Source of the DNA: Prorocentrum cordatum
Lineage: Eukaryota
Assembly: GCA_963575745.1 (NCBI GenBank)
Contig: CAUYUJ010000001.1
Location: 2,046,001 to 2,110,000, forward strand
Reading direction: 5' to 3'
DNA length: 64,000 bases
A program made the translations under genes and the position numbers. How positions within the stretch are numbered: the first letter of the stretch is position 1; each line of letters opens with the position of its first letter. Below, in pieces: positions 33-15,426 of the stretch. The notes beneath the pieces are model-generated. The model was not told where the DNA came from and made no database searches. It saw nothing but the letters and a program-made list of their open reading frames with translations.

Positions 33-1958
33 ATGCACATGCACTGGATTAAGATAACTATCTTCGGCATTCTATGGGTAATAATGGGATGTGCTGTGGG
101 ATACATGCGGCAGGGGATGGACGACACGCGTACTACCGGCCCTTCGTGGGACCCTGCCGGTACTACGCCTTTTCGCGAATACGTTCGCGAAGTACATGCA
201 TGGATAAACGTAACGAGCGGCAATATGACGCCACCTCAACAAGCTGCAGCACTACAACGAGGCCTTCAAGGTCTTGCTCGTCGTATCGCCATGCAGGTCC
301 CCTCCCAGATCATCAACTATGGTGTAACTGTCAACGGACAGCCAACGGATGCAGTTACTTATATACTGTACCTATTGAGCACCAAATTTGAAAATCTGGA
401 AGATGAGCGCCAGCTCAACTCTGGCACTGCCCTTATCGACTTTCGCGTCGAAAGGGGCGAGCGAATCGACTCAGTGTTAGCTCGATTCGAGATGGCCCGT
501 GACGAGGCTAACTCTGTTGGCTTTGTCATCCCCAACTTTCAGATCCTAACGCTGATCCTTTTCAGAGCGTTAGGCGTTGGCGCGTCACGAGCCCAACACC
601 TGCTGGAGCCCTTTAATCATCAGATGCCCAGAACACAAGCAGACTATGACAGGCTGCTGACCAGGATGAGGAACTACGGACATGTTGCCGAGCGCTCTCC
701 TGGCAACATTGCGGGTATCTTCACAGGGCACCACTCACATGCAGGTGTCTACGCCACGACTGCGGGGTCACCCGCTGGTCCTGGCGAGCCAAGTCCCTGG
801 GCTGACCCAGCCGATATGCCCAACGAGGCCACTGCCTTCTTAGGGCAGACCGGCCAGGCATCGGCAGAGGCAGCTGAGGCGAACGCCTGGTCGAACTACT
901 CGCCAGGCGCCGCCTACACTGCAAGCCCGCCCTCGGGCACAACCCTCTGGGGCCAAGCGGAGTCATCCGCTCAAGGGTCTCAGCCACCCTCACCGTTTGA
1001 ATCTGGCACTGACACAGATACCTCATCTGACGATGAGCACAATGGCATAGTCTCTGCTGGTAATGACTATCCAGCGGATGACACTCACCTTTCTGAACAA
1101 CAAAGAGCGGAAGCCGCTTTTATGGCTTATCGCAAATCAAAACGCCGTTGGAGGCGCTTTATGAAGAAACCAGTCAGAAAAGTGAGACGTGCAGTACGCC
1201 GACATTTCAAACGATATGGAAAGGGTCGTGGCAAAGGGGGTCGCAGACGCCGCATGCACGGTAGGGGTATTACTGCTTTCCTCACGTCCTTAACTGATAT
1301 AGTTTTTGAAGAAGTTCTTATCGGAGGCAAAGGTCGGGGTCGCAGGCGGACCTCTGATAAGGGAAAAGGGCGCAGGGGCAACCCTAGGGACGCTTCTGGC
1401 AATACTATGAAGTGTCATACATGCGGTAGCACAGAGCATTTGCGCGATCAATGCCCAAAAGGGAAAGGAAAGGGATCCGCACATTTGGCTCAAAACTCTT
1501 TTATGGATGACATAGACTACATTGACTACGAGTTTTACGTCAATCCAGAAGCGGCTCCCGCCGCGGGCTCCTCCACGTATTACGTGATGGCCCGCTACGC
1601 TGAAGTGACCGTAGCCCTGGAAGAGTACGCGGTGACCCTCTTCGACGAGTTCCACGGCTGGGACGAAGTCGACGAGGTCGCGTTCAATGCCTGGTTCGGT
1701 CTTCCAGCGGGGCCACCCGCCGACGACGAGATCTCCGATGCTGAGACCGTCCCGGCGACCGAGGAGGAGCTCGCCGCCGCGCTGGCACCGCAGGTGTTTG
1801 GCATGCCGTTGCTGCCAGATCTTCCGCGAGCTGGCTCGGAAGCGGGAGACGCTGATGACGAAATGCGGGGCCATCCCGCTTATTCTGACTCTGAAGAGCC
1901 GAAGAGGACCATAAGGACATGCTCCAAGAGCAGGTCGCAGAAGCAATCCAGCTCCTGA
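33..1958 (+). CDS. gag: Gag-like protein with basic region and CCHC zinc knuckle; probably continuous with the next ORF
   Basis: Gag-type N-terminal motif PSWDP..PFREYVREVHAW, an R/K/G-rich tract, and the knuckle CHTCGSTEHLRDQC (CX2CX4HX4C) at 1413-1454. The frame is open back to the window start, so the true start may lie upstream. Confidence 0.85.
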   Translation: MHMHWIKITIFGILWVIMGCAVGYMRQGMDDTRTTGPSWDPAGTTPFREYVREVHAWINVTSGNMTPPQQAAALQRGLQGLARRIAMQVPSQIINYGVTVNGQPTDAVTYILYLLSTKFENLEDERQLNSGTALIDFRVERGERIDSVLARFEMARDEANSVGFVIPNFQILTLILFRALGVGASRAQHLLEPFNHQMPRTQADYDRLLTRMRNYGHVAERSPGNIAGIFTGHHSHAGVYATTAGSPAGPGEPSPWADPADMPNEATAFLGQTGQASAEAAEANAWSNYSPGAAYTASPPSGTTLWGQAESSAQGSQPPSPFESGTDTDTSSDDEHNGIVSAGNDYPADDTHLSEQQRAEAAFMAYRKSKRRWRRFMKKPVRKVRRAVRRHFKRYGKGRGKGGRRRRMHGRGITAFLTSLTDIVFEEVLIGGKGRGRRRTSDKGKGRRGNPRDASGNTMKCHTCGSTEHLRDQCPKGKGKGSAHLAQNSFMDDIDYIDYEFYVNPEAAPAAGSSTYYVMARYAEVTVALEEYAVTLFDEFHGWDEVDEVAFNAWFGLPAGPPADDEISDAETVPATEEELAAALAPQVFGMPLLPDLPRAGSEAGDADDEMRGHPAYSDSEEPKRTIRTCSKSRSQKQSSS

Positions 1959-4900
1959 GTGCGCCAGCACATCAGCAGATAACCATGAACGACCTGCTGT
2001 CGCACCCAGGGGCCGCAAGGCTGCGTCCATACCTGGATTCGGACATGTCGGCACCTCAGATGCTGACAGCACTCCAGGCTCTAGCGGGGTCACCCGCCGA
2101 AGTGACGCCAGCCGCAGCAGCGGGGCCACCCGCTTGGTCTATGGATGTATTCATGCAGGGCTGCGACCAGATGGACCTCAACGACCTCACGATGGAGCAG
2201 CTAAACGACATCGGGTACTTCCGAAGCCCGTATCAGCACGTATTCATGGTCCAGGACAGCTCAGAGGACTCGGAGGACATGCGCCATGCCAAGAGGGACA
2301 GACGACCATCGCCTCCCCGAGACTCAGAGCATGAAGATGAAAGGCCCATGGAACGTGGCAGTGCGTCAGCGGGGCCAGCCCGCAGGAGGAGCCGTTCAGC
2401 TCCACGACGCCCTACACATGATGCATCGGGCTATCCGTACAGTACGGAGCACTCCGTAGGTGCATCCGCTCAGTACGTGCCGGAGTGGTACATCAATTGG
2501 TACCCCGGCTACTCGATGGACGTGATCCGCCACTGGTATTCTAAGGAGTACTGCACCAAAAGGGACGAATCTGGCATGATAATACGCACCAAGGGTGGCA
2601 AGACTAAAACGCCAGAGGCTTGGGACAAAAGGGCTAAGAAACAGGAGATCATCAACGATCGCAAGACATACAGGAAACAAGTATGTCAATGCGAGCCCTT
2701 CAAAAGTCACATGCGCAGCAATCCAATGGACCGCCCCTCCAGGAGCCCTCATCACGGTGAGACCCCGTGGAATTGGTCTCATGGAGGTGACGCTGGCAAC
2801 GTCCATGATCCTAACAAGGAGGTCCCTGGAGGAGGAAAGCGCATAACTGAAGCCGATGGCGTCCCTATGACCGAGGAGGTTGCCAACGCTGTCAGGGAAA
2901 ATTGGGAACAGCTTCCTAATGACCATCGCCTCAAGGAATGGAACCGCCGATTCCATAAAGAGGCGGGGTCACCCGCAGAATCCAGCGGAGAAGCGGGGTC
3001 ACCCGCAGACGCGGCGCCAGTCGCTGGGTCCGCGGACGAAGATTGGATAGCTGTTGCATCTGCTGCCGGATCCGCCGCCGGTACTGACCAAACCGAACTG
3101 ACTGAAGAATGGGCGGCGGAAGACGGCTCAGAGAATCCATTCCCTGATGGGTGCGCCTGCTGGCACTACAGCTCCTCGGCACAGAAGTGGTTTTGCACAA
3201 GGGTTATTCACCGCCACGAAAATGGCAAGTACAAGCTGGCCATAAAAGGCACTGCCGACATCGACCAGATGAGGCAGATCGTTCATGATCATGGCCAGCC
3301 AGAAGGCCCTCCTAAGGACCCTCCTGGTCCACAACCAGGCAAGGGCAGCAGACCACCTCCAAGACCTGAAGCCGACTCCTCGTCTTCACCGACTCCTGCG
3401 AAGAGGCACCCGTCCAAGAGCCCCGAAGGCACACGGGGGCGTGCGAAGGCCAGAGGGATCGCCAAGAAGGACGACCCTGAGCAGGGAGAGCCGACCGGCC
3501 CGTCCGTGACGGAGAGGAGGAAGGCTTTTGCTGGACCATCAACCCCGGTGCCACCGGCTGCCCAAGGCGATGTCAAGGACGAAGTTCGCGACCAGCCTAA
3601 GGCAGCCTTCCGAGGTGACTGGACTCCAACGCTGCATCAGCCGCGCCTTGCACCACGACCAGGTTCAGCACGAATGAAAGCACAGCCGAAGCCTGAAGCT
3701 GGGACGAGGTCGGCGCGGGCAGAAGCAGCCGCCAAAGCTAAGGAGGACAAGGGCTCTGCGGGGCCACCCGCTAAAGCGGCGCCAGCTGCAGCAGCGGGGG
3801 CACCCGCAGAAGGCACTCTCTCAAGAGAAGAACGCTTCAGAGCCCTCAAAGAGTTTGGCGACCGACAGAAACTAGCCGACGATGCAGTGGCTGACCAAGG
3901 TCACCCGCACCCTGGCGCGGAGTCATCCGCTGGAGCTGCCTCGTCAGCCGCAGGTTCTGCAGGGCCACCCGTTAAAGCGGCGCCAGCTGCATTAGCGGGG
4001 CCACTCGTTAAAGCGGCGCCAGCTGCATTAGCGGGGCCACCCGCACGCTGGCAGCCAGCGATGTCTGTTCTCAGGAACATCCCTCTGGGAGCCATTGAAT
4101 ATTGGCAAGGCATTGAAGGCAAAGGCCCGAAGCGCACCATAAACCCACGAGTCACTCGAGACGATGCAGATCGATGCGAGGTCATTAATTGTCCTGATCG
4201 CCGTAACTTCGAGTGCCGCAACGATTGGGAACGTGAACAACAAGCCGTGGGAAATATGTTGCGAGACAGGCCGCCATTGCGCGTCGCGCAGCACAGGGCA
4301 GAGCTCATGAAGGTCCTGGAGAAGTTTAATACAGATCCTACTCTGCCGCGCGACTGGCAAATGACCAAGGTGTCAATATGGTTCTCTACAGCCCTACCCC
4401 ATAGTCCGTATTGGAAAGATGGATTCAGCCGACATTTCGAAAAGATCAACACTTTCGATCCATACGATGGCTGGGTTGTTATTGACGATTTGTTGACAAA
4501 CTGGACTGAAAACGATCAGTGGAAAGGCTACCGTGACATGCATGATGCGCTGATCAAGGGCAACCCTCACTGTTCATACGTGTACTGGGTGTTGCTAAAC
4601 TGCTGCGAGATGATCGACGGTCATGGTATGCAGAAGGGCAGGCTCCAGATGAAGTGCGTCGAGGACAGCATGAAGCTACCTCCCAGATTCCGACCAACGG
4701 TACGCAGGCCACAATACTTCATCAGAGCCACGAACGGCCATAGCAGCCCAGGCATCCACTGCCCCGAGTCGCTCTATAAGCCGATCACAACATGGATGAA
4801 GGAACCAGACGACCCAGTATACTTCATCCACGGGACACAGTGGGAACATGTCAAGGGCATCCTTGATAATGGCCTTTCGTGCCTCGCACAGGACAACCCT

Positions 4901-7900
4901 AAGGGGAAGGGGGGGCGCCAGTTCGTACACGGCTGCCCCTACCTCCCGGGTGACCCGAGGATTCAATCGGGCATCCGTCCTGACTCAGAGGTGCTTATCT
5001 TCTGCAGCATCAGCAAGATGTTGTCCAGCGGCTTTTCCTTATGGAGGTCAGCGAATGACATCGTCATGACACGGGGCCACGACGGCCGCATACCGCCCGA
5101 TCATATCCTCCAGATTGTGAGCATTGCAAAATATCGGGTCGGTGAAGCCTGGAGCAATCCGCTGGCGTATGACAAATCGCGGAAGCGGGGCCAACCCGCA
5201 GACAGGATTCGCACCGATGATTACCTGCCACTTAAACTATGTGACAGAACTCTGGGTGTAATGGAAGATCACGCCATGTACCTAAAGGGCTGGTCTAAGA
5301 CGGACGGTCGCCCATTCAACTTGATCATGACCGAGCAAGATGTTGCTCCACGACCGTACGACACACAGACAGTCCTCATGATAAATGCCCAGGAAGACGA
5401 GGTCATGCCTGAGGCGGGGCCACCCGCAGGTGCGGGGACACCCGCGGTAGACACCTCGGATGGTTCATGGCAACAAGTGGTCACACCAGTAGCAACGGTA
5501 GCATCTCCTTGGAGGCCGGATCAGCAGGCATGGGTCCAGGCCCTCAACAGCTACCTGACACCAGCCGACGTTTCTGGACTGACCGATCAGCTATATCGTG
5601 CTGACCCGTGGGCAGTGCATACAGGTATCCAAGACGCACAGCAGAGGAACCTGCGCACTCCTGCGGGGCCACCAGGCGTCCTAGGACCACAGCCACAACG
5701 CCCTCCGCAGCAGGCTGGAGGTGCGAGGTTTGTCCCTATGGGCGGCTCAGATGGTGGCTCGCCGTTCCGGACTCCGCCGTCTGAAACGAGCGAGAACAGC
5801 TTGTGGCAAAGACTCCAGGCGATTCGCGGGAATCCGGCACTCGCAGCAGCACTCCAAGCAACCACTCCCTTTGGCACTCCGAGGGGTAGTGAAGGAGGAG
5901 TGGCTGCGGGGTCACCCGCCGAGCGAACGCCTGCGGAGCCACCCGCTCAAGCGGGGCCACCCGCTGACGGACAGCAAGGTTCAGACTACGAACGTCGGGC
6001 AGCCAACTTAAGAGCACAGGCTACTTTTCTGCAGCAACAAGCTGATAGAGTGCCCAGCCTGTTGCGGAACCGCAACATAGATGTTACGAATCATGGCGAC
6101 TTTCGACCTCTTTGGAGTTGGACTTCTGAAGATGCTCCAAATGCTGATCCCACGAATCCATATCGACAGGTGTTTATTCCAGGAATAGCATCACACCCGA
6201 TATATGGATGGGACAATCACGGTCCAGCAGAGGCGCAGGCCATGGACGCGCCGATGTACCCGGAGTACTACGCGCAGATGAATAACACTCCTATGATTGC
6301 GGGGCCACCTGCGAACGAATACACTCGGAACCTAGCTAATGAGATGTTTCGTTTGCAGTTTACACGAGCGGTCGATGCGCAGTCTATGCCGCACTACGCC
6401 TACATGCCCACGCCGACGGACCCCGAGACCATAGTTCAGCCAGCTGGTCTCGCGGTGCCAGCCGCTATGGGCAGCATGCCAGACTACATTCGCGACGTGC
6501 ACAACACGCAGCAAGCGATACTGGCATCCAGGCAGCAGGCTCGGGACAACACCAGGCTGCGCCAACAACGCGCGATCCAGAGAAGGATTGAGCGCGAGGC
6601 CCAAGCGGGGACACCCGCAGAAGCGGGGCCACCCGCTGAACGGTCAGACAGACGGCCACCACCGACGCCATATCGGGAGGGCGAAACCACTTTCGAGCGC
6701 CAAGCTCGGACTCGCCCTGACGTGCCTGCTCCAGTCATTTCAGACTACAACTTCACTCAGTGCCCAATCTGCATGGACAACTACGAGATGGGCACTACAG
6801 TGTGGAGACTGGCGTGCGGGCACTTCTTTCACGACATATGCTGGGACCGTGTTGCACAACAGCACGTCCGCAATCAGCGGCCAGGTGCGCCGAATGAGGC
6901 CCCCTGTGCCGTATGTCGGGGACCGGGCATAGTGATAGCACACTTCCCATATGCTGGACAGCGCGACGCTGAGTCGGACCAAGCGCGCCAGCAGGAAAGA
7001 TATGTTGCAGATGCCCGAGAAATGCGTCGGTTACGAGAAGCAGTGGAGGCACTGGAGGCTCGAGTCGCTCTATCAGCGGAGCCATCCGCACGTGCCCCAG
7101 CTGCGCAGGCATACCCCTGGCCAGCGCCAGAACAAGGCATTCAGATGCCGATCCTGTCCACGCTCCGAGCGCAGGAGCCCCCAGCTGCGGGGCCACCCGC
7201 TGAAGCGGCTCCCGCCGCCCAAGCGGGGCCACCCGCAAACGGACCTCCAAACCCAGGTTTCCTGAGGACCATGGAGGCCAACATCAGGCGGAGTGGCAGG
7301 AGCGGAGGCGGGATCCGAAGGCCAACTGGATCAACCAGGACCTCTCGAGTGGCAAGCCCGGTCAGCGCCAGAAGCCGGGCAAGCGCTGAGAGCGCAGAGG
7401 CAGCCCAGTTTCATACCACGTTCATGATTGACACAGAGGGGCTGACCTACGCGCGTGACGATACAGACACGCTGCCACCAGGAGGCGAATGGATGTCCAC
7501 GCTCTCTGCAAACTATTGGGTCCTCCAGCAGGAACCAATTACTGTGGAGGAGCGCCGCCAGTACGATCAGATGTGGTGCACCGAGCTGACCATGAGCCAA
7601 TGGGTTCTTGAACAGCGCCTGTTGAGGGGTACACTCGGATCACAGATCACGTACCACACCAACGACCACACTGGCGTACAGGTCGCTCTTGCAGCGCGCA
7701 ATGGGACATTCTTTCCTGATGAAGATGGTGTGCCCTGTATCTCGTTCATGCTGGACATTGGTTCTAATGTGAACATCATTGGATCCAACACGGCGCGGAC
7801 CTTCCAGGAGATAATGGCCAGGTACAACTACCGACCTGCCATCTGCACCCTGAGCAAGACCCTCTACATTAATGGTGTTGGGGAGGGCGCTGCGATATGT

Positions 7901-8815
7901 CGGAAGATGGGCAACTTCAAGATCGGGGTACAGTATGCCAACGAGGCGAGCCCCCGTATCGAGGAGTATGCCTCCAACATCGCAGAAGGTTCGGGTGCCA
8001 ATATCCCGGCCATCTGGGGCCTAGGAGCCATGGAGGCACGTGACACGATCATCGTGCTGAAGCCTGGCTACCAGAAGGTCATCTTCCCCAGCGGTGACTA
8101 CACCCTGAAGCTGGGAAGAGGCACCAAGGTCCTGAAGGCGAAAAAGACTCCCTCGGGCCATCTCGCGATTCCCTGCGGGCTGTATGAAGGGGCCAAGAGC
8201 CACACGGTCACGAACACCTTCACGATCCGCAGCAGTCGAGATGGCTACACCGAGACGGAGAATGAAGAAGACCCCGTCAGTGCGGGGCCACCCGCTGAAA
8301 CAACAGCGGGGCCACCCGCGACGGGACAGTCTGCGACCTTCACGACCGATACGTACATCGTCGAGCCGTACATCGACAAGCAGCTCCTGGAGGACACGAC
8401 CCGTTTGATCGTGAACAGGACGCTGAACAACTGGTGGGAGTGCCGACAGGGCCCCGAAGGGACTGGGCCACACATGAAGGCTGCCCTGAAGTCCAAGATT
8501 TTCTGGGCAGTCCAGGAGGCGGTGAGCAAATGGGCGCCTGAGGATCCAGCGGGGCCACCCGTGTCGCCGCCACCACCACCAAGCCACATGGGCGGAGGTT
8601 CGTCGGACTCTGCGGGGCCAACCCGCGTGGAGATCGTGGGTCACGCTACGGATCGGACGGAATACTTTGACATATCTGAAAACAATCCGCCGATTCTGTC
8701 TGCGAGCGTGGCCACACCAGCTGCGGGGTCACCCGCCGAGCGAACGCCTGCGGAGTCATCCGCTAACAGCATGCCTCCGAGCCAAGCGGCAACTTGGTCT
8801 CACGACCGCCGCTGA
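1895..8815 (+). CDS. Polyprotein block 2: low-complexity linkers, Tpt1/KptA-like domain, RING-H2 finger, aspartic protease
   Basis: 2298-aa ORF from ATG 1919; the frame is open from 1895. It contains the three motif sets listed separately and ends at TGA 8813-8815. Confidence 0.88.
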   Translation, partial: RAEEDHKDMLQEQVAEAIQLLSAPAHQQITMNDLLSHPGAARLRPYLDSDMSAPQMLTALQALAGSPAEVTPAAAAGPPAWSMDVFMQGCDQMDLNDLTMEQLNDIGYFRSPYQHVFMVQDSSEDSEDMRHAKRDRRPSPPRDSEHEDERPMERGSASAGPARRRSRSAPRRPTHDASGYPYSTEHSVGASAQYVPEWYINWYPGYSMDVIRHWYSKEYCTKRDESGMIIRTKGGKTKTPEAWDKRAKKQEIINDRKTYRKQVCQCEPFKSHMRSNPMDRPSRSPHHGETPWNWSHGGDAGNVHDPNKEVPGGGKRITEADGVPMTEEVANAVRENWEQLPNDHRLKEWNRRFHKEAGSPAESSGEAGSPADAAPVAGSADEDWIAVASAAGSAAGTDQTELTEEWAAEDGSENPFPDGCACWHYSSSAQKWFCTRVIHRHENGKYKLAIKGTADIDQMRQIVHDHGQPEGPPKDPPGPQPGKGSRPPPRPEADSSSSPTPAKRHPSKSPEGTRGRAKARGIAKKDDPEQGEPTGPSVTERRKAFAGPSTPVPPAAQGDVKDEVRDQPKAAFRGDWTPTLHQPRLAPRPGSARMKAQPKPEAGTRSARAEAAAKAKEDKGSAGPPAKAAPAAAAGAPAEGTLSREERFRALKEFGDRQKLADDAVADQGHPHPGAESSAGAASSAAGSAGPPVKAAPAALAGPLVKAAPAALAGPPARWQPAMSVLRNIPLGAIEYWQGIEGKGPKRTINPRVTRDDADRCEVINCPDRRNFECRNDWEREQQAVGNMLRDRPPLRVAQHRAELMKVLEKFNTDPTLPRDWQMTKVSIWFSTALPHSPYWKDGFSRHFEKINTFDPYDGWVVIDDLLTNWTENDQWKGYRDMHDALIKGNPHCSYVYWVLLNCCEMIDGHGMQKGRLQMKCVEDSMKLPPRFRPTVRRPQYFIRATNGHSSPGIHCPESLYKPITTWMKEPDDPVYFIHGTQWEHVKGILDNGLSCLAQDNPKGKGGRQFVHGCPYLPGDPRIQSGIRPDSEVLIFCSISKMLSSGFSLWRSANDIVMTRGHDGRIPPDHILQIVSIAKYRVGEAWSNPLAYDKSRKRGQPADRIRTDDYLPLKLCDRTLGVMEDHAMYLKGWSKTDGRPFNLIMTEQDVAPRPYDTQTVLMINAQEDEVMPEAGPPAGAGTPAVDTSDGSWQQVVTPVATVASPWRPDQQAWVQALNSYLTPADVSGLTDQLYRADPWAVHTGIQDAQQRNLRTPAGPPGVLGPQPQRPPQQAGGARFVPMGGSDGGSPFRTPPSETSENSLWQRLQAIRGNPALAAALQATTPFGTPRGSEGGVAAGSPAERTPAEPPAQAGPPADGQQGSDYERRAANLRAQATFLQQQADRVPSLLRNRNIDVTNHGDFRPLWSWTSEDAPNADPTNPYRQVFIPGIASHPIYGWDNHGPAEAQAMDAPMYPEYYAQMNNTPMIAGPPANEYTRNLANEMFRLQFTRAVDAQSMPHYAYMPTPTDPETIVQPAGLAVPAAMGSMPDYIRDVHNTQQAILASRQQARDNTRLRQQRAIQRRIEREAQAGTPAEAGPPAERSDRRPPPTPYREGETTFERQARTRPDVPAPVISDYNFTQCPICMDNYEMGTTVWRLACGHFFHDICWDRVAQQHVRNQRPGAPNEAPCAVCRGPGIVIAHFPYAGQRDAESDQARQQERYVADAREMRRLREAVEALEARVALSAEPSARAPAAQAYPWPAPEQGIQMPILSTLRAQEPPAAGPPAEAAPAAQAGPPANGPPNPGFLRTMEANIRRSGRSGGGIRRPTGSTRTSRVASPVSARSRASAESAEAAQFHTTFMIDTEGLTYARDDTDTLPPGGEWMSTLSANYWVLQQEPITVEERRQYDQMWCTELTMSQWVLEQRLLRGTLGSQITYHTNDHTGVQVALAARNGTFFPDEDGVPCISFMLDIGSNVNIIGSNTARTFQEIMARYNYRPAICTLSKTLYINGVGEGAAICRKMGNFKIGVQYANEASPRIEEYASNIAEGSGANIPAIWGLGAMEARDTIIVLKPGYQKVIFPSGDYTLKLGRGTKVLKAKKTPSGHLAIPCGLYEGAKSHTVTNTFTIRSSRDGYTETENEEDPVSAGPPAETTAGPPATGQSATFTTDTYIVEPYIDKQLLEDTTRLIVNRTLNNWWECRQGPEGTGPHMKAALKSKIFWAVQEAVSKWAPEDPAGPPVSPPPPPSHMGGGSSDSAGPTRVEIVGHATDRTEYFDISENNPPILSASVATPAAGSPAERTPAESSANSMPPSQAATWSHDRR
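4361..5125 (+). other. Tpt1/KptA-like RNA 2'-phosphotransferase domain (RNA lobe + NAD+/ART lobe)
   Basis: Ordered motifs match the family pattern: SIWFSTALPH (cf. S..LS..LRH), DGWVVIDDLL, KGRLQM (cf. KxRF), IRATNGHS (cf. IRAxQGHS), FIHGT, I...GL, RQFVH (cf. RxHVH), SGIR, VLIF, SANDIVMT (cf. SxNGVxLT), GRIPPDHI. Confidence 0.88.
6761..6916 (+). other. RING-H2 zinc finger (putative E3 ubiquitin ligase domain)
   Basis: CPIC-x14-C-G-H-FF-H-DI-C-W-x20-CAVCR gives the complete C3H2C3 ligand set and the conserved Trp. Confidence 0.9.
7736..8180 (+). other. Retropepsin-type aspartic protease
   Basis: ISFMLDIGSNVNIIG (variant of the D-T/S-G motif, Asp codon 7754-7756), flap-like INGVGEG, IPAIWGLGAM, and SGHLAIP. 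Confidence 0.75.
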
Positions 8816-8851
8816 CGGGGGCAGGCGGGCGCGCCGGCGGCGCTCGCTTGC
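8813..8851 (+). promoter_or_regulatory. Putative stop-codon readthrough signal (UGA-CGG plus 3' stem-loop)
   Basis: TGA 8813-8815 is the only stop between two long ORFs in the same frame. It is followed by CGG GG and a hairpin GCAGGCGGGCGC (8821-8832) / GCGCTCGCTTGC (8840-8851), 12 bp with 2 G-U pairs. Confidence 0.7.
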
Positions 8852-11800
8852 GATGAGAAGCCGAATGCCGGCCTCCTCGCTACATACGTTGGCCGCGCTG
8901 AGGCCCGAGAGGAAAAATATCATTCAAAATGTCTTGTCATCGAGGATATTCGCACAGCTTGCGCTGAACTCCGAACCCGTGGCTATATATGTGATCGGAT
9001 TACCCATAATGAGGTAATGACTTCAACTGGAACACAGTATTTGGGAAATTTGTTGGCAGGAGACTACAATATGTTGTGGGTGGCCACACCCTCTGATTGG
9101 TACGTTCGTACTCCAGGAAAGAGGGCGGGACCACACTATCAACGTATACAAAATCTCCTGATCAAAGCGCGTGCTCTGAGAATGCAGATTGTTATCCTGG
9201 GGACACCCGGGTATTTCTGGAAACAGGGTCCGATCAAAGATGTTACCGAAGATTTGAAGCTAAGCATTATACGAATGAGACTCTGTCATTTCGGTATCAA
9301 GTTTGACCGCTCCAGTAAATATCCCAGTGATTCTTATATACAAGTTGCTACATCTTGTCCCCATATACCGATAAACTTATGGAGATGTACGTGTGGCTCA
9401 CACAAAGAGCACGATTTGGATTGGTATGGCCAAGACCAGCAACGTGCCGAGTTCCGGCATAAAACCTTGGCTATCATCACTGCACGCTTCCTTGATCAAC
9501 TCAATAAAGCCAACGTGATTAGGAATGAGCGGAGTGCGGTACACCTCAGTGTGTGTACGCGCGTTGACAAAAAGGTAAGACACTACGTTCAATGTCCACA
9601 AAAGGGCCCTCAATGGGACCATGTTGTTCGTAGAGTCACGACCGACCTGGACACGAATAAGATCGTTCAAGATATCAAAATCCAGGATCAGCCGACTGGG
9701 TACAATTATGTAGCTCCATTACCTGATGGGGTTACAAACATCAGTACTCGGTTATACTGGGAGCCTCCGGCTCCAGTTCTTCACGGCGATGGTGAGTCGC
9801 GAAGGCCACGCCCAAAGCGTGTGACGATCGTCGATGACGATCGGTCTCCTCCCCCTTCGATTGAGCGTTGCCAAACGCGACCCACCAACTTTCCTGAAAT
9901 TCCGCCATTTCCTGACTTAACAGCGGATCCTTCCGCAGCGGATCCCTCCGCAGCGGATCTCTCCGCGGAAACTGCGCTGCCCACTGATGCCAGGATAAAA
10001 CAGAAAGAAAAGCAGAAAGCTGACAAAGAAGCCGGCATCAAACCGAAGAAAATCCCGAAGAAAGTGGAAGACGGTAACGACGACTGTGGAGAGGACCTCA
10101 AAGGGCTTGACTGCTCCACATATTTCAACGACGTTCCTCTTGATGACTCGGACTCGGACAGCGAATCAGAGGACATCTTCATGATGTTACCGGCGGGGCA
10201 ACCCGCTGACTCACATGCTGATGTCTTCTCGATGGTCCAGTCACTATGCTACGGCAGAAACAATCAAGTGGACATGCTTGAATTATGTGGGGGCAAGGGT
10301 GGTATATCCATATTAGCCTTCAAGAGAGGACTCTCGTCGGGCGGGAGCCTTGATAAGGTATCTATGGTTGACCTTGGGAACGCGGAAGTACAAAGGGCAG
10401 TCCTTCACTACCTCAAGACTTGCTTTGTCAAGATCACGATTCTGCAGCCAAGCTGCAGAACTACTGGACTTCCTTCCTACTTCAATGCACAGGTCAATCA
10501 TGATACGTGGCTTAAACACCACAAAGAGGACCTGCCTCATATCACGTTCTGTGGAACAGTCGCTCTATTACAAGACGACCTAAGACGTTTCTTTCTCAGG
10601 GAACAACCAATGGGCACGTGGGTGGATGAGATCCAGCCATGGAAGGAACTGGCACAACGCAAGGTCACTTGCCAAACGATTATTGATCAGTGCACGACTG
10701 GTCTCAAAGATTCGTTTGGACAATACATCCGCAAGCCAACACAGATGATGGCAAACAAAGAAGAGTTGTTGGCACCCTTCAGAGGCAAGCGTTGTCCAGG
10801 TAATCATGTGCACGCCAATGCTTGCAACAAAGAACTAGCAAGGGCGGCACAGTATACCTACAGAATGCAGTCACTGATCGTTGATGCGGTGCAAATCGCC
10901 AAAGATCTGTTTGCTTACGGTCGCGATCCATTCGCGAATCGCGAACGCAGTTATGCGTTCGTAACAAACAGTGCTGGCTACGACTTGGACGACCCAACAA
11001 TCCGGAGACACCCAAACGGAGAAATCTGGCGACCACCACCTGGCGGTCTTGGGTGTCCTGGCTGTGTAGACAACAACTACAAACAATCACCAAGACACAG
11101 CAGGGATCCGAAGATGTGTCGATGGTATGATGTTGAACCATACCATTGGGACTGTCCAAGCTGTAAGAAGGAATACCAGAAGAGCAATCCTCACCATACC
11201 AAGATATCTGGCCAATGTAGATTCGCTGAAAAATGGAAACTGCCAGATAACTTTGGTCAGCCGCGCCCAGCGGGGCAAGCCGCTCCTGCGGCGCCAGCCG
11301 CGGAAGCGGCTCCAGCCGCAGAAGCGGCGCCAGCCGCAAAAGCGGCGCCGGCCGCGAAAGCGCGCATACGCGCGCCTAGGCCGCCACGGCCCGGTGAGGG
11401 CGATCCAACCGCAGGCGCCAGCAGCCATGACATCACCAGGGCCGAGGGGGCTCATGGTAACACCTCTGGCGCTGGTAGCTCTGACGATCACCGCAGACTG
11501 CCACAAGTTGCAGCAAGGCGCGGACGCATGGAGGGAGGAGATCCTCCACCACCGCCGCAGCCTCAAGCAGAGCCGAGGCCAAGGCCAAGGCTCCCTGATT
11601 GGACTCGCTTCGACGTTCAGCTCAGCCTTCAAAACCTGCGCAGCTTTGACCCAGCTGTAGTGCAGCGAGAACTCCGCAAACTCCACTTGAGATGGTTTCA
11701 TGCCAAGGAGCCAAAAATGCGGATGATTCTAACTAAGGTTGGTCTGGGTGAAACCCGTTTGAGTCTGATCAAAGGCATTTGCGACTCGTGTAGAGAATGT

Positions 11801-12233
11801 CGAGCCTGGGACAAACCAGGCAACACGGTGATGCCTTCTGTGTCACTGCCAGGACGTTTCAACGAGGAAGTCGAATGTGATCTTTTCTTTTACAAACAGG
11901 AACATATTGTTTTTCACATCATCGACCGTTGTATTCGCTGGGCAGCTGGCACAGAGATTCCTGATAAGACTATGCATACTGTTCTCGATGCCTATCACAC
12001 AACTTGGATGCAACATGGCCCTGCTAAAATCTTATACTCCGATGGGGAAGGAGCACTGAATAACGATACAGCAAAGGCCATCCTTAAGGCTAAGGGAACA
12101 GAGCTTCGTATCCGAGCGCGTGGCCAACACGCCACGACTATCGAAGCTAGGAACGGCATCCTGCGACACCTCATACACGTGATGGGAGAAGAATTGAATA
12201 GATTAAATATTCCTCTGAATTTCACTCGTCTTT
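8816..12233 (+). CDS. pol: Pol block 1: two methyltransferase-like domains, tandem Zn modules, integrase; continues after a -1 break
   Basis: The frame of the supplied 9017-12610 ORF is open from 8816 (RGQAGAPAALACDEKPN...KCLVIEDIRTACAELRTRGYICDRITHNEVM). Integrase-like sequence switches to the -1 frame at ~12231-12233. Confidence 0.85.
8927..9430 (+). other. Degenerate C5-methyltransferase-like domain (copy 1)
   Basis: Motif order parallels the downstream domain: CLVIE, LWVATP, VILGTPGYFW, MRLCHFGIK, RCTCGSH. The glycine-rich SAM loop, the catalytic Cys and the motif VI Glu are not evident. Confidence 0.4.
10265..10890 (+). other. C5 cytosine DNA methyltransferase-like domain (copy 2)
   Basis: VDMLELCGGKGG (motif I-like), VDL, ILQPSC (motif IV-like, Cys retained), FLREQP (motif VI-like), IDQCTTGL..RKPT (motif VIII-like), CPGNHVH, AAQYT. 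Confidence 0.68.
11054..11218 (+). other. Two tandem CxxC-x10-H-x6-C putative zinc-binding modules
   Basis: CPGCVDNNYKQSPRHSRDPKMC and CPSCKKEYQKSNPHHTKISGQC have identical ligand spacing, and each is followed by Arg plus an aromatic residue. Confidence 0.65.
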
Positions 12234-12330
12234 ACATGAAGCCTTGTTTGCCAGCAACGCATTTACCTTCTACAATGAAGTTTCTCCGTATAATGCGCTG
12301 TATGGCAGACAACCAGCTATGCTTCCCGAT
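11681..12330 (+). other. Retroviral-type integrase (HHCC + DDE core)
   Basis: LHLRWFHA...CREC. Catalytic triad in ECDLF (Asp 11879), YSDGEG (Asp 12041) and IEARN (Glu 12143). It continues as SNAFTFYNEVSPYNALYGRQP in the -1 frame. Confidence 0.88.
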
Positions 12331-15300
12331 TTCCCTGTCTTGGATCATGATCAGTCCGCTGAATCATCAGATCACTCAAGGGAGGAGACAATCAGGAGGG
12401 TTAGTCTGGAGGCAATTACGCAGGCCACTGCGGTTGCCAAGACGAACAGGGCTCTCCGTACGAAGACTACTGCTACGGGTGAATTTCACTACAAAGAGGG
12501 AGATCTCGTGGACTATCATCGCCCGACCACCACGAAAGACGACTGGGGTGGATGGAGTGGTCCATACCCGGTCATCCGCAACGAACCTGACCGAGGCCAG
12601 GTCATCGTGAAGGTCGGTAGTCGCGAAGTGCGAGTACAGTATCCTGACACACGACATACGCTGTACATCGAAGCACTGATGGTCCGCGAGATAGGATCGG
12701 ACAATACGGCCCTTCGGACAGTATTGGCCTTTATTGCCGGTCTGCCAGCGGGGAAACCCGCCATGACTTTCGGATATCTACCAGCGAAACAGGGCCGGCT
12801 GCAGATGACTGCTGCGAGCCGACTTTCGCCTAAGGTGCACTTGGCTCTTCAGTACCTCATACGCAACTATTTTCGTATTGAAAACGTTGTTGCTGTACGA
12901 CTTGCCAAGAGCCTGACGAAGTTGCCTGCTGCCCCCTATGCAGACAGCTGTACACTAGTGCACTATGATAACGATGTGACCCCTGGCTTTCACTATTATG
13001 AAGCTGATGGCACTGCCTTGAACATCTACGACATCACAGGATCCACACACTCACGCATCATCCAGTGTCTTAAATCCAAGAAGCCGCCTGCTGGATTCGA
13101 CCGAGACCTCACTAAGTTTGAGGAACTCGCTGATGGTCCACCACCAAGCGAGTCACCTCCAGCAGCTGCTCCTGAGCAGCCTCCTGCGGAGAATGATGGT
13201 CGGCTCCCGACCATCATAGAGGAAACAGAAGAAGATCTGGATGCCTTTGTCTTAAAGTCGTGGTATGCTGAACTGATGGATGACAGAACACTCCTTGAAG
13301 CTGACACAGAAGAAGTCATGCATACAGTTCCGACATACATGACAGACACACAGTGTGTGTTAGTCTCTACGACCTGTGAAGATGTGCAAGGCCACTTGCC
13401 GGAGCGGGGTCACCCGCCAGGATACGACATGGACACTGCTTACTACGTTCCTTTGTGCTCCACGGATCCGGACAGCAAATATGATCTGGATTCCGATGAG
13501 CACGGGAAGTACATCGAGCTTTGCTTCACAGCAGACATGTCCAAAGTCGTCCTGTCCGAGCAGCAACACCGATTGTTGGATGACAGCAGCGTCACAACTA
13601 TGCGAGTATACGTTAGTGCTGCCTCCAAACGTGCCGCGGTCGTCAAGGAAGACGATCTACTCACGAAGGCCGACATTCAAGCGAATCCGGTCAAAGTTTC
13701 CAAAGCCCTTTACACAGAATTGAAGACTTGGCTTGACAACAAATGCTTCCAGATGACTGACTTGAGCAAAGCGTCGAACATCATGACTTCACGCTACGTA
13801 TACAAATGGAAGTTTGTCAAGAACGAAAAGGGCGAAATGGAAAGGACGATTAGGTTACGCTTGGTACTCCGTGGCTTCATGGACCTTGAAGCCTTTGATG
13901 TCGAAACCTTCTCTGGTACGGCAAGGAGGTCAAGCCAGAGACTGCTCGCAAGTTCTGCTGCATGCAACAAAGCTTGGATCATCGCTTCCCTGGACATCAA
14001 CATGGCTTTCTTGAAGGGACTGACCTATAGCGAGCTCGCCGCGGCAACGGGCGAGAAAGAGCGTGTGGTGTGCTTCACACTACCTCCTGGGTCAGCAGCT
14101 GTCCTTCGCACACTGCCAGGCTTTGAGTCATATGACGAATCAAAGCATTGTCTTCGGTGTCTGAAGCCGGGGACGGGCACGAAGGATGCTCCCAGGGCAT
14201 TCTCGTTGAAGCTCAGATCCATCACTAGGAGCTTTGGACTACAGCCTACTTCATACGACGAAGAGTTCGAGATGAGCTCAAACCTCTTGACAGCCAAACA
14301 CGTCGATGACATCAATATGACTGGGAAGGAAGATGCTATTGACAAGTATGTCAAGTGTGTTGAAGATACGTTTGGAAAGTGCAAACTGAACAAGCACACA
14401 TACACAAACTGTGCCGTTCGGTACAACAAGACCGATGATGGGAGCGTCACTCTTGATCAGGACGAATACATCAAACAGCTTCGTCCTATCACACATCCAG
14501 AACTCACAGGAGCTGATCCTGAGAGCAAAGCGACAAAGACGATTTCTGATATGTTCGTCAGTCTTCGTGGCGCTCTAGCCTATGCGTTGATCACGCAGGT
14601 ATGGCTGATGGTCTATGTTGTCTCACTACAACGTATCCAGGAACCGACAAACATCCAGGTACGACGACTAAACGCGGTTACCAGGAAACTGCAGGCAGGT
14701 CCGAAGAAGATCGTGTATCAAGCTATGACTCCAACAGGAGAAGTCGACCTGCATAGCGATTCTGGCTATCGTCGTCTCAACGGAGATGAAGACGACGAAG
14801 TCAAAGGCTATGGTATCCGCGGGGCTAACCTGCTGAGGCGTGGCCACACGCAAGCGGGGAAACCCGTCGTGCACCTGGTGGACGCATACTGCAAGTCTCA
14901 TCGACTGCAGGTGCGTTCGAGCTACTCTGCGGAAACACTGGCAGCAGCCCACAACTTGGAAGACTGCTACCGGACCATTGTAACGCTCCACGAGCTACAC
15001 TCGGGACCATTGACCCCCACACAGTTAAAGAACATATTGGAAATGGGTGGTCTATGTATCAAAGTCACTCTGACTATTGATGCCGAGTCTGTCTTCAAGT
15101 CTTTGTCTAGCAAAGATCTGAAGAAGCCCACAGAATGTACTCTGCTTGGGCACATTAGCTGGATCCGCCAGATGATGGAGCGCGGAATCGTTGAAAGCGT
15201 TCAATGGTGTGACACGCGGGATATGACTGCTGATGGTCATACCAAAGGTAGTATTGACCGCGCGTTGCTCCTACAAGTAATGGCCGGCCAGCAATCCTTC

Positions 15301-15426
15301 AAGCACGAGCTGAAGAGACATACTCCGTATAGGGCGGGCAGGTCGTCTCAGGACGGCCCTGCCTCCCGAGCTAGCGGGAAAACCCGCATGCAGGTGCGCT
15401 CTAGTAGCGAGGAAACTCGCCGGTAG
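12234..15426 (+). CDS. pol: Pol block 2: integrase C-terminus, copia-type reverse transcriptase and RNase H
   Basis: RT motifs SRYVYKWK, RLRLVLRGF, SLDINMAFLKG, GTKDAPRAF, KHVDDI (14296-14313) and LDQDEYI. RNase H motifs LHSDSGY, SSYSAETLAA, TIDAESV and DMTADGHTK. Confidence 0.93.

Follow-up and report, generated by a model that had tools for sequence, protein, structure and literature searches.

The window analysed here, a 64,000-nucleotide stretch of the Prorocentrum cordatum genome (contig CAUYUJ010000001.1, positions 2,046,001 to 2,110,000 of the forward strand), encodes a two-lobed Tpt1/KptA domain at positions 4361–5125. The domain is part of a long polyprotein. The first 15.4 kb of the window, judging by its reading frames, is most of a giant Ty1/copia-like long terminal repeat (LTR) retrotransposon, and comparison of the relatives of this element shows that the Tpt1 domain is conserved under purifying selection in the family. 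The reading frames, domains and motifs of the element described below lie on the + strand.

The Tpt1/KptA RNA 2′-phosphotransferase-like domain is 255 residues in length and free of stop codons; it lies within open reading frame 2 (ORF2), which encodes a 2298-residue polyprotein. Pfam search of the domain identified PF01885 (PTS_2-RNA, Tpt1/KptA) with an E-value of 4.7e-17 and a score of 63 bits, against a cut-off of 26; the match aligns domain residues 100–239 with positions 56–177 of the 177-position profile. The domain also matched the PHROG family of RNA 2′-phosphotransferase (E 3.9e-5). The best sequence matches in PDB are human and mouse TRPT1 (7yw3, E 6.6e-14; 7yw2, E 1.2e-12), and yeast Tpt1 was matched with an E-value of 9.1e-4. 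Exhaustive search of representative proteins returned 671 homologues with E ≤ 1e-3, 77 with E ≤ 1e-10 and 6 with E ≤ 1e-30.

The domain is composed of one RNA lobe (approximately 4361–4660) and one NAD lobe (approximately 4660–5125). The N-terminal RNA lobe was not seen by Pfam; it was recovered in an 88-sequence alignment (A2) and by fold. In A2, the S-T-A-L-P-H segment of the window copy is aligned with the L-R-H of the cellular proteins, and Q-K-G-R-L-Q is aligned with K-x-R-F. The AlphaFold2 model of the domain, built from A2, has a mean pLDDT of 87.0 and a pTM of 0.82. In Foldseek comparison with PDB, the top match of the model is mouse TRPT1 (7yw2), with an E-value of 1.3e-14, 256 alignment columns and a TM-score of 0.76 (target). 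Further matches include human TRPT1, Clostridium thermocellum Tpt1, Thermococcus KptA, and the Pyrococcus and Aeropyrum Tpt1 proteins. Among the matches listed, those ranked 1–22 (E ≤ 3.9e-4) are all Tpt1, KptA or TRPT1 structures; the next one is DarT1, with an E-value of 0.083. Both lobes, a winged-helix RNA lobe and an ART-like NAD+ lobe, are covered, as about 250 Foldseek columns were aligned with whole TRPT1, Tpt1 and KptA structures at TM-scores of 0.71–0.76 (target). As revealed by A2 and the AlphaFold2 model, the RNA lobe of the retro-type sequences is longer by about 30 residues, and their NAD lobe carries one insert. The first-pass annotation had described a Tpt1/KptA domain with both lobes, carried by a retroelement polyprotein and followed by an in-frame UGA, and had pointed to structural comparison as the way to check it; the Pfam match, the TRPT1 match and the fold all bear this description out.

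Conservation and active site of the domain in the element family

Scanning metagenomes with a six-row alignment (A4) identified three loci, L001–L003; the IMG/VR scan with A4 gave 21 pattern matches, 0 of which were confirmed. L001 is 8780 nt in length. Its positions 2–694 encode a pol C-terminus that is 78% identical to the C-terminal 210 residues of ORF4, the reverse transcriptase frame of the window copy. It then contains a single open frame of 2639 codons, which encodes Gag (with CCHC), the block preceding Tpt1, Tpt1, RING and a protease-like part, in this order. The Tpt1 domain of L001 is 46% identical to that of the window, and its Gag is 53% identical to ORF1. The same domain order is found in the ENA protein P0010, for which both PF01885 and RING families are precomputed. 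A chance ORF or a fusion to a host gene was ruled out by the conserved architecture in L001 and P0010.

For the Tpt1 domains of L001 and L002, the nonsynonymous (dN) and synonymous (dS) divergences are 0.106 and 0.92 over 241 codons, giving a dN/dS of 0.116 for this one sequence pair; compared with the window copy, the synonymous sites are saturated. In the P0002–P0010 alignment, the NAD lobe is the best conserved 60-residue window of the polyprotein (0.65, then 0.52). The values are 0.47–0.48 for the RING, 0.48 for the protease-like part, 0.33–0.35 for the RNA lobe and 0.2–0.3 for the linkers. In one quick maximum-likelihood tree, ten retro-type rows are located on one side of a branch with an SH-aLRT of 84. 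The tree contains 71 of the 88 A2 rows, as the 17 in which fewer than 150 query columns were filled had been dropped, and long branches were flagged; no cellular sister group of the retro-type Tpt1 was resolved in it.

The active site of Tpt1 is formed by a tetrad of residues, Arg-His-Arg-Arg, which the yeast enzyme has as Arg23/His24/Arg71/Arg138 and human TRPT1 as Arg40/His41/Arg86/Arg150; the NAD motif H-H-h of TRPT1 is His130-His154-Val198 (excerpts of PMC10415124 and PMC6333775). Residues were mapped onto human TRPT1 by HMMER alignment to the PDB sequence, and by A2 for P13-H14 and R94. Human R40, H41, R86 and R150 correspond to P13, H14, R94 and R186 of the window copy. Pro13-His14 (CCC CAT) is located at 4397–4402, where the relatives have Arg-His. 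R94 belongs to the K-x-R motif (codon 4640–4642) and is in a nearly invariant column of A2, and R186, which is equivalent to human R150 in the TRPT1 alignment, is encoded at 4916–4918. Human H130, H154 and V198 correspond to H157 (4829–4831), H190 (4928–4930) and I234 (5060–5062); the H-H-h motif is present in the window copy, and the SG-x-R motif is located at 4967–4978. The tetrad of the window copy is incomplete, owing to the loss of its first Arg (Arg1).

At the level of the element family, all four tetrad residues are present in the alignment columns. Arg1 is Arg in all the 15 other family sequences that cover the column. Eight of them are Prorocentrum cordatum proteins that are 86–91% identical and may be close copies (P0003, P0006, P0012–P0016 and P0162); the others are the more distant P0010, P0011, P0021, P0034, P0058 and P0109, and the metagenome locus L002. 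L001 was left out of this count, as it is nearly the same as P0010. In A3, a family alignment of 21 rows, His2 is conserved in 6/6 of the other rows, Arg3 in 13/14 and Arg4 in 12/14. At the NAD site, the first His is conserved in 8/12, the second His in 13/15 and the hydrophobic position in 11/11. Taken together, the conserved order, the dN/dS, the relative conservation and the catalytic columns indicate that Tpt1 is part of the design of the element.

The first-pass annotation had counted three of the four tetrad residues as kept, with Pro in the place of Arg1. Its residue calls are correct; codon 4397–4399 is CCC and is followed by CAT. Its further suggestion, an altered active site or a pseudoenzyme, does not extend to the element family: in the alignment of copies it had called for, the family has Arg and Pro occurs only in the window copy. 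As far as these alignments go, the Arg-to-Pro change is a private lesion of the window copy and not a design of the family. According to excerpts of PMC10415124, human and mouse TRPT1 with alanine at Arg1 neither complement yeast nor ADP-ribosylate nucleic acids. In Runella Tpt1, alanine at Arg1 slowed the first step 380-fold and the second 710-fold (excerpts of PMC6333775). Since alanine at the same Arg kills TRPT1 and slows Runella Tpt1, the Tpt1 domain of the window copy is probably inactive, that is, catalytically dead. With Pro13 and a frame break in the integrase-like region, the window copy looks slightly decayed.

The cellular-type matches are canonical Tpt1 proteins (Pfam E of about 1e-50). 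Fusions occur in a few of them, to tRNA-ligase CPD/kinase or 2H domains, and in no case to a reverse transcriptase. P0115, a cellular-type protein of 1700 residues, contains SPRY, kinase-like and fungal-type tRNA-ligase CPD domains and a C-terminal Tpt1. In P0136, also of cellular type, one 2H/AKAP7-like phosphoesterase is joined to Tpt1. By their predicted domains, P0115 and P0136 are natural fusions of consecutive heal-and-seal steps. The Prorocentrum cordatum gene models P0003, P0006, P0012–P0015 and P0162 have a Tpt1 RNA-lobe fragment spliced to unrelated sequence or to the protease-like block, and some such models are named protein-tyrosine-phosphatase or 1,3-beta-glucan synthase. These models are probably chimeric annotations of element fragments.

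Possible functions of the Tpt1 domain

In the reading that we favour, the Tpt1 of the family would be an accessory enzyme of the polyprotein on the Gag side of the UGA, with integrase and reverse transcriptase (RT) following that stop, and it would be packaged and released from the polyprotein. As in Tpt1, the RNA phosphate would attack NAD+, and internal 2′-phosphates would be taken off the genomic RNA of the element and/or the primer tRNA. Such 2′-phosphates would be left by tRNA-ligase-type joining and would impede the RT. According to excerpts of PMC10415124, Arg3 is essential for the 2′-phosphotransferase reaction, and it is merely a redundant binding residue for ADP-ribosylation of 5′-phosphate ends; the conservation of Arg3 in the family would thus favour the two-step 2′-phosphate reaction. 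In addition, an RNA 2′-phosphate lowers cDNA synthesis by reverse transcriptase (excerpts of PMC5824351). The retention of Arg3, the hindrance of RT by 2′-phosphate, and the production of the enzyme with or near Gag all favour removal of 2′-phosphates. That the elements encode an NAD+-dependent enzyme clearing 2′-phosphates from the RNA that is copied or used as primer is a plausible reading, to which we give somewhat less than an even chance.

One more specific version holds that the elements need a 2′-phosphotransferase of their own because their replication includes a tRNA-ligase-type cut-and-rejoin of RNA, with the 2′-phosphate being removed before reverse transcription. We regard this version as a long shot. 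The cut-and-rejoin step could involve the 19 strand-specific 14-nt hairpin motifs described below, or spliced or circular genomic RNA.

Several points weigh against removal of 2′-phosphates by a conserved enzyme. No 2′-phosphate source was found in the element RNA, and the primer-binding site lies outside the window. No ribozyme or above-threshold Rfam family was detected in 1–22000 at E ≤ 1, where one chance-level SgrS match was the only return. In the searches of the element against Pfam, NCBIfam and PHROGs, no ligase, 2H, macro or Nudix partner was found. The sequence and fold matches are not independent evidence, as the alignment used for AlphaFold2 held Tpt1 homologues. Owing to the extra residues in the RNA lobe, the substrate may differ from that of cellular Tpt1. 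Purifying selection was measured for a single pair, and the branch uniting the retro-type rows is only moderately supported. Arg1 is missing in the window copy, and the first NAD-site His is replaced by R or Y in 4/12 of the A3 rows. Several short-fragment relatives carry many odd residues; key residues are missing in some relatives, mostly short fragments, which suggests that many copies are decaying. Part of the family signal therefore comes from dead copies.

The domain may instead ADP-ribosylate 5′-phosphate ends of RNA or DNA, which would cap the ends of the element RNA or cDNA against exonucleases, ligation or end-sensing until integration. Mammalian and bacterial Tpt1/TRPT1 proteins do ADP-ribosylate 5′-phosphorylated nucleic acids (excerpts of PMC10415124 and PMC12678800); the mammalian TRPT1s, which are strong in that activity, are the best sequence and fold matches of the domain, and the required residues Arg1, His2 and Arg4 are conserved in the family. 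However, Arg3, which is dispensable for capping and essential for 2′-phosphate transfer, is kept in all but one of the 14 other rows, and the same three databases revealed no cap-removing domain of macro or NADAR type in the element. We consider 5′-end capping possible, though on balance unlikely. Counter-defence or host manipulation, in which the enzyme would act on host RNAs, for example by completing the repair of nuclease-cut tRNAs, is rather improbable in our view. It accords with the reading of KptA in phages, giant viruses and a few RNA-virus polyproteins as RNA-repair or conflict machinery (excerpts of PMC9503650), and the model matches the folds of a Hyperionvirus protein (E 3e-14) and the Botrylloides leachii nidovirus replicase (E 5.5e-10). 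The RING finger, a typical host-manipulation module, is also conserved in the same polyprotein. However, the RNA ligase, 2H and Nudix domains that might act as partners are absent from the search results, and, as a general point made in excerpts of PMC9503650, the host is expected to have its own cellular Tpt1 on hand.

Two further explanations deny the domain a catalytic role in the family. It might be a pseudoenzyme that serves as a non-catalytic RNA-binding module, as the Pro of the window copy, the loss of the first NAD-site His in one-third of the rows and the lineage-specific insertion in the RNA lobe could suggest. This is very unlikely: all the 15 other sequences have Arg1, the NAD lobe rather than the RNA lobe is the most conserved part, and the odd residues occur in short, much-substituted fragments, for which dead copies are a better explanation than a new function. 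Retroelements do capture host sequences, and the family is known from sequence alone; the domain might thus be a passenger, either a captured host gene fragment without a role or a chance fusion in the window copy. That explanation is hardly credible, since the domain keeps the same position and order in lineages that are 46% identical, its dN/dS is 0.12, and it is better conserved than the RING and protease-like parts of the element.

Layout of the element and other features of the window

The Gag-like ORF1 (3–1958) is open at the 5′ end of the window and is 53% identical to the N-terminal part of L001 over 637 residues. It contains one CCHC zinc knuckle (CX2CX4HX4C) at 1413–1454; the zf-CCHC match (E 0.0016, 18.9 bits) is below the cut-off of 20.8. 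ORF2 (1919–8815) is in the −1 frame relative to ORF1, which it overlaps at 1919–1958. It is collinear with P0010, to which it is 33% identical over 1580 aligned columns, and it is composed of a low-complexity N-terminal part, a conserved block with Tpt1, the RING finger and a putative protease. Directly upstream of Tpt1, ORF2 residues 721–814 (4079–4360) form a conserved extension without a Pfam match, which is also conserved in P0010, P0011, P0021, P0109, L002 and L003.

The RING finger is encoded at 6758–6922 (ORF2 residues 1614–1668) and matched the Pfam families zf-C3HC4_2 (30.6 bits, cut-off 27) and zf-RING_2 (30.1 bits, cut-off 27.3). It is conserved in P0010 and L001; it might be an E3 ligase and a second accessory domain. 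The putative aspartic protease core (7751–8035) was assigned by motif and position, with D-I-G-S at 7754–7765 and I-W-G-L-G at about 8012–8026. This block is conserved in P0010 and L001, but its Pfam and PDB sequence searches were blank, and an AlphaFold2 model of 7631–8263, built from a six-row alignment, was unusable with a pLDDT of 29.3. ORF2 ends with a UGA stop (8813–8815), after which the frame stays open for 1264 more codons. The context of the stop is UGA CGG, which is a leaky-stop context in some plant viruses and alphaviruses. P0010, a 41–47% identical relative, also stops shortly past the homologous F-D-I position.

The continuation frame, ORF3 (8816–12610), contains conserved parts followed by integrase-like motifs that were judged by eye, HHCC at 11684–11800 and D,D35E at 11870–12154; neither has a match in Pfam, NCBIfam or PDB sequences. 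A frame break at 12225–12245 carries the integrase-like region of the window copy from the ORF3 frame into the ORF4 frame. In three of the four sequencing runs, contigs contain one extra base at 12230/12231; the base at 12231 accounts for 24% (X1), 78% (X3) and 46% (X4) of the depth, and X2 is uncovered there. ORF4 (12244–15426) encodes the copia-type RT and the pol C-terminus. The RVT_2 match at 13738–14520 has an E-value of 2.4e-11 and a score of 44.2 bits, against a cut-off of 31.6, which identifies the RT as copia-type, and the integrase-like part sits upstream of it. The coding region alone is longer than 15 kb, and the 5′ end of the element lies beyond the window. The element is highly repeated in all four sequencing runs, and the named proteins closest to it belong to the dinoflagellate Prorocentrum cordatum. 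Except for Tpt1 and RING, searches of ORF2 and ORF3 gave nothing credible in Pfam (E ≤ 10), NCBIfam and PHROGs (E ≤ 1) or PDB sequences.

Following the first-pass annotation, the domain would be part of an in-frame Gag-Tpt1-protease fusion and would be made at Gag-like abundance. Tpt1 does lie upstream of the UGA, and Gag and Tpt1 are within one ORF in the distant relative L001. In the window copy, the Gag-like ORF is in another frame than Tpt1, and the putative protease is recognised by its D-I-G-S motif and position. The two frames overlap at 1895–1958. One extra base at 1897, which would join their frames, accounts for only 12–27% of the contig depth in the four runs, and no canonical slippery heptamer was seen by eye in the overlap. 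Since ORF1 and ORF2 are out of frame in the window copy, Gag-like abundance is uncertain for the family.

The end of pol and the start of Gag homology are no more than about 700 nt apart in L001 (region 1–1400). This pol-to-Gag run is as expected if an assembler had collapsed the LTRs or if the elements were in tandem; the LTR would then be short for so large an element.

In the ORF3 frame, region 10277–10609 contains L-E-L-C-G-G-K-G-G, then L-Q-P-S-C-R and then F-F-L-R-E-Q-P, three segments that we presume to resemble C5 cytosine methyltransferase motifs I, IV and VI. This region has no match in Pfam, NCBIfam, PHROGs or PDB sequences. If the resemblance is true, the region would be a DNA methyltransferase (DNMT)-like domain in a copia-type element; the Copia elements of Symbiodinium are said to be without DNMT (PMC5890265).

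The 14-nt motif GCGGGGYCACCYGC occurs at 19 sites within 762–13417, where shuffles expect 0.02. All the sites are on the + strand and inside the element, and none is found in the other 48 kb of the window. The copies at 4031–4044 and 5414–5427 flank the Tpt1 block. The 18 sites in ORF1 and ORF2 always encode A-G-(P/S)-P-A and always fall between conserved blocks, in the linkers; the 13404 copy is in another reading frame. The motif can be drawn as a hairpin, with 5 bp in the stem and 4 nt in the loop. In L001, GCRGGGCAACCTGC (AGQPA) occurs 10 times; these copies have a GCAA loop and an A-U or G-U pair where the stem of the window motif has G-C. Some contig joints start or end at GCGGGGYCACCYGC copies (8295 to 761; 7222 back to 7187). 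The motif may act as an RNA hairpin in dispersed copies, as a linker with a protease site, or as a place of recombination. Elsewhere in the window, 20200–57800 contains dense direct repeats with 9/12-nt periodicity (for example D1, with 225 copies) and tandem arrays of 83 and 76 nt.

Comparison with known Tpt1 carriers and retroelements

Like cellular Tpt1/TRPT1/KptA (PF01885), the element domain has the two-lobe fold and the K-x-R, SG-x-R and H-H-h motifs, and its family also has the Arg-His-Arg-Arg tetrad (excerpts of PMC6333775 and PMC10415124). Different from the cellular-type proteins, to which it is 25–37% identical, it carries the extra RNA-lobe residues and the NAD-lobe insert; whereas cellular Tpt1 stands alone or, as P0115 and P0136 illustrate, is joined to RNA-repair domains, the element domain lies within its 2298-residue polyprotein. 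Excerpts of the survey of Iyer et al. (2022, PMC9503650) describe KptA as a free protein in giant viruses, jumbo phages and a nucleopolyhedrovirus, and rarely within RNA-virus polyproteins. Like the KptA of the Botrylloides leachii nidovirus and the Beihai picorna-like virus, the element domain is a Tpt1 on a selfish replicon, sometimes in a polyprotein, and the folds match. However, the viral carriers are RNA or DNA viruses, and the carrier here, of copia type, is reverse-transcribing; neither retrotransposon nor retroelement appears as a term in that survey.

Accessory domains are known in other retrotransposons. Elements of dinoflagellates and charophytes can carry cytosine methyltransferases (PMC5890265), and a chromodomain, a DnaQ-like exonuclease and an SF1 helicase have been described as well (PMC6338049). 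The present element is similar in that an enzyme domain is fixed in a retroelement polyprotein and kept by selection, and dinoflagellates are a known hot spot for this. The enzyme class is different, and neither paper mentions Tpt1, KptA or phosphotransferase. The abundant Copia elements of Symbiodinium are without the DNMT domain (PMC5890265). The RVT_2-type RT is shared with Ty1/copia, including the heat-activated elements of Symbiodinium (excerpts of PMC5776459), and so would be the putative integrase upstream of it and the Gag-like part with its CCHC knuckle. Different from Ty1/copia, the element has a coding region of more than 15 kb and extra Tpt1, RING and unassigned blocks, and Pfam fails to recognise its putative integrase and protease, which are too divergent. 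The literature covered, which included few subscription journals and no Repbase-type catalogues, yielded no report of a retroelement with Tpt1/KptA; the retrotransposon passages of PMC11453091, a source seen in excerpts, have no mention of Tpt1. On the evidence of the alignments, giant copia-like retrotransposons carry the conserved Tpt1 as an accessory domain.

For the genome annotation of Prorocentrum, the finding means that fragments of the domain have been built into misnamed chimeric gene models. It also means that the copia elements of dinoflagellates, which were reported to be DNMT-free, can be very large and multi-domain, and that an RNA-repair or ADP-ribosylation enzyme joins the known accessory domains of retroelements. 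The role of Tpt1/KptA where yeast-type tRNA splicing is absent is an acknowledged puzzle (excerpts of PMC6333775). A Tpt1 that is kept by a retrotransposon offers a new setting for this puzzle, in which the substrate should be narrow and findable, namely the element RNA, the primer tRNA or the cDNA ends. If true, the cut-and-rejoin step would be new to the replication of retroelements, and it would give Tpt1 a selectable role outside tRNA splicing.

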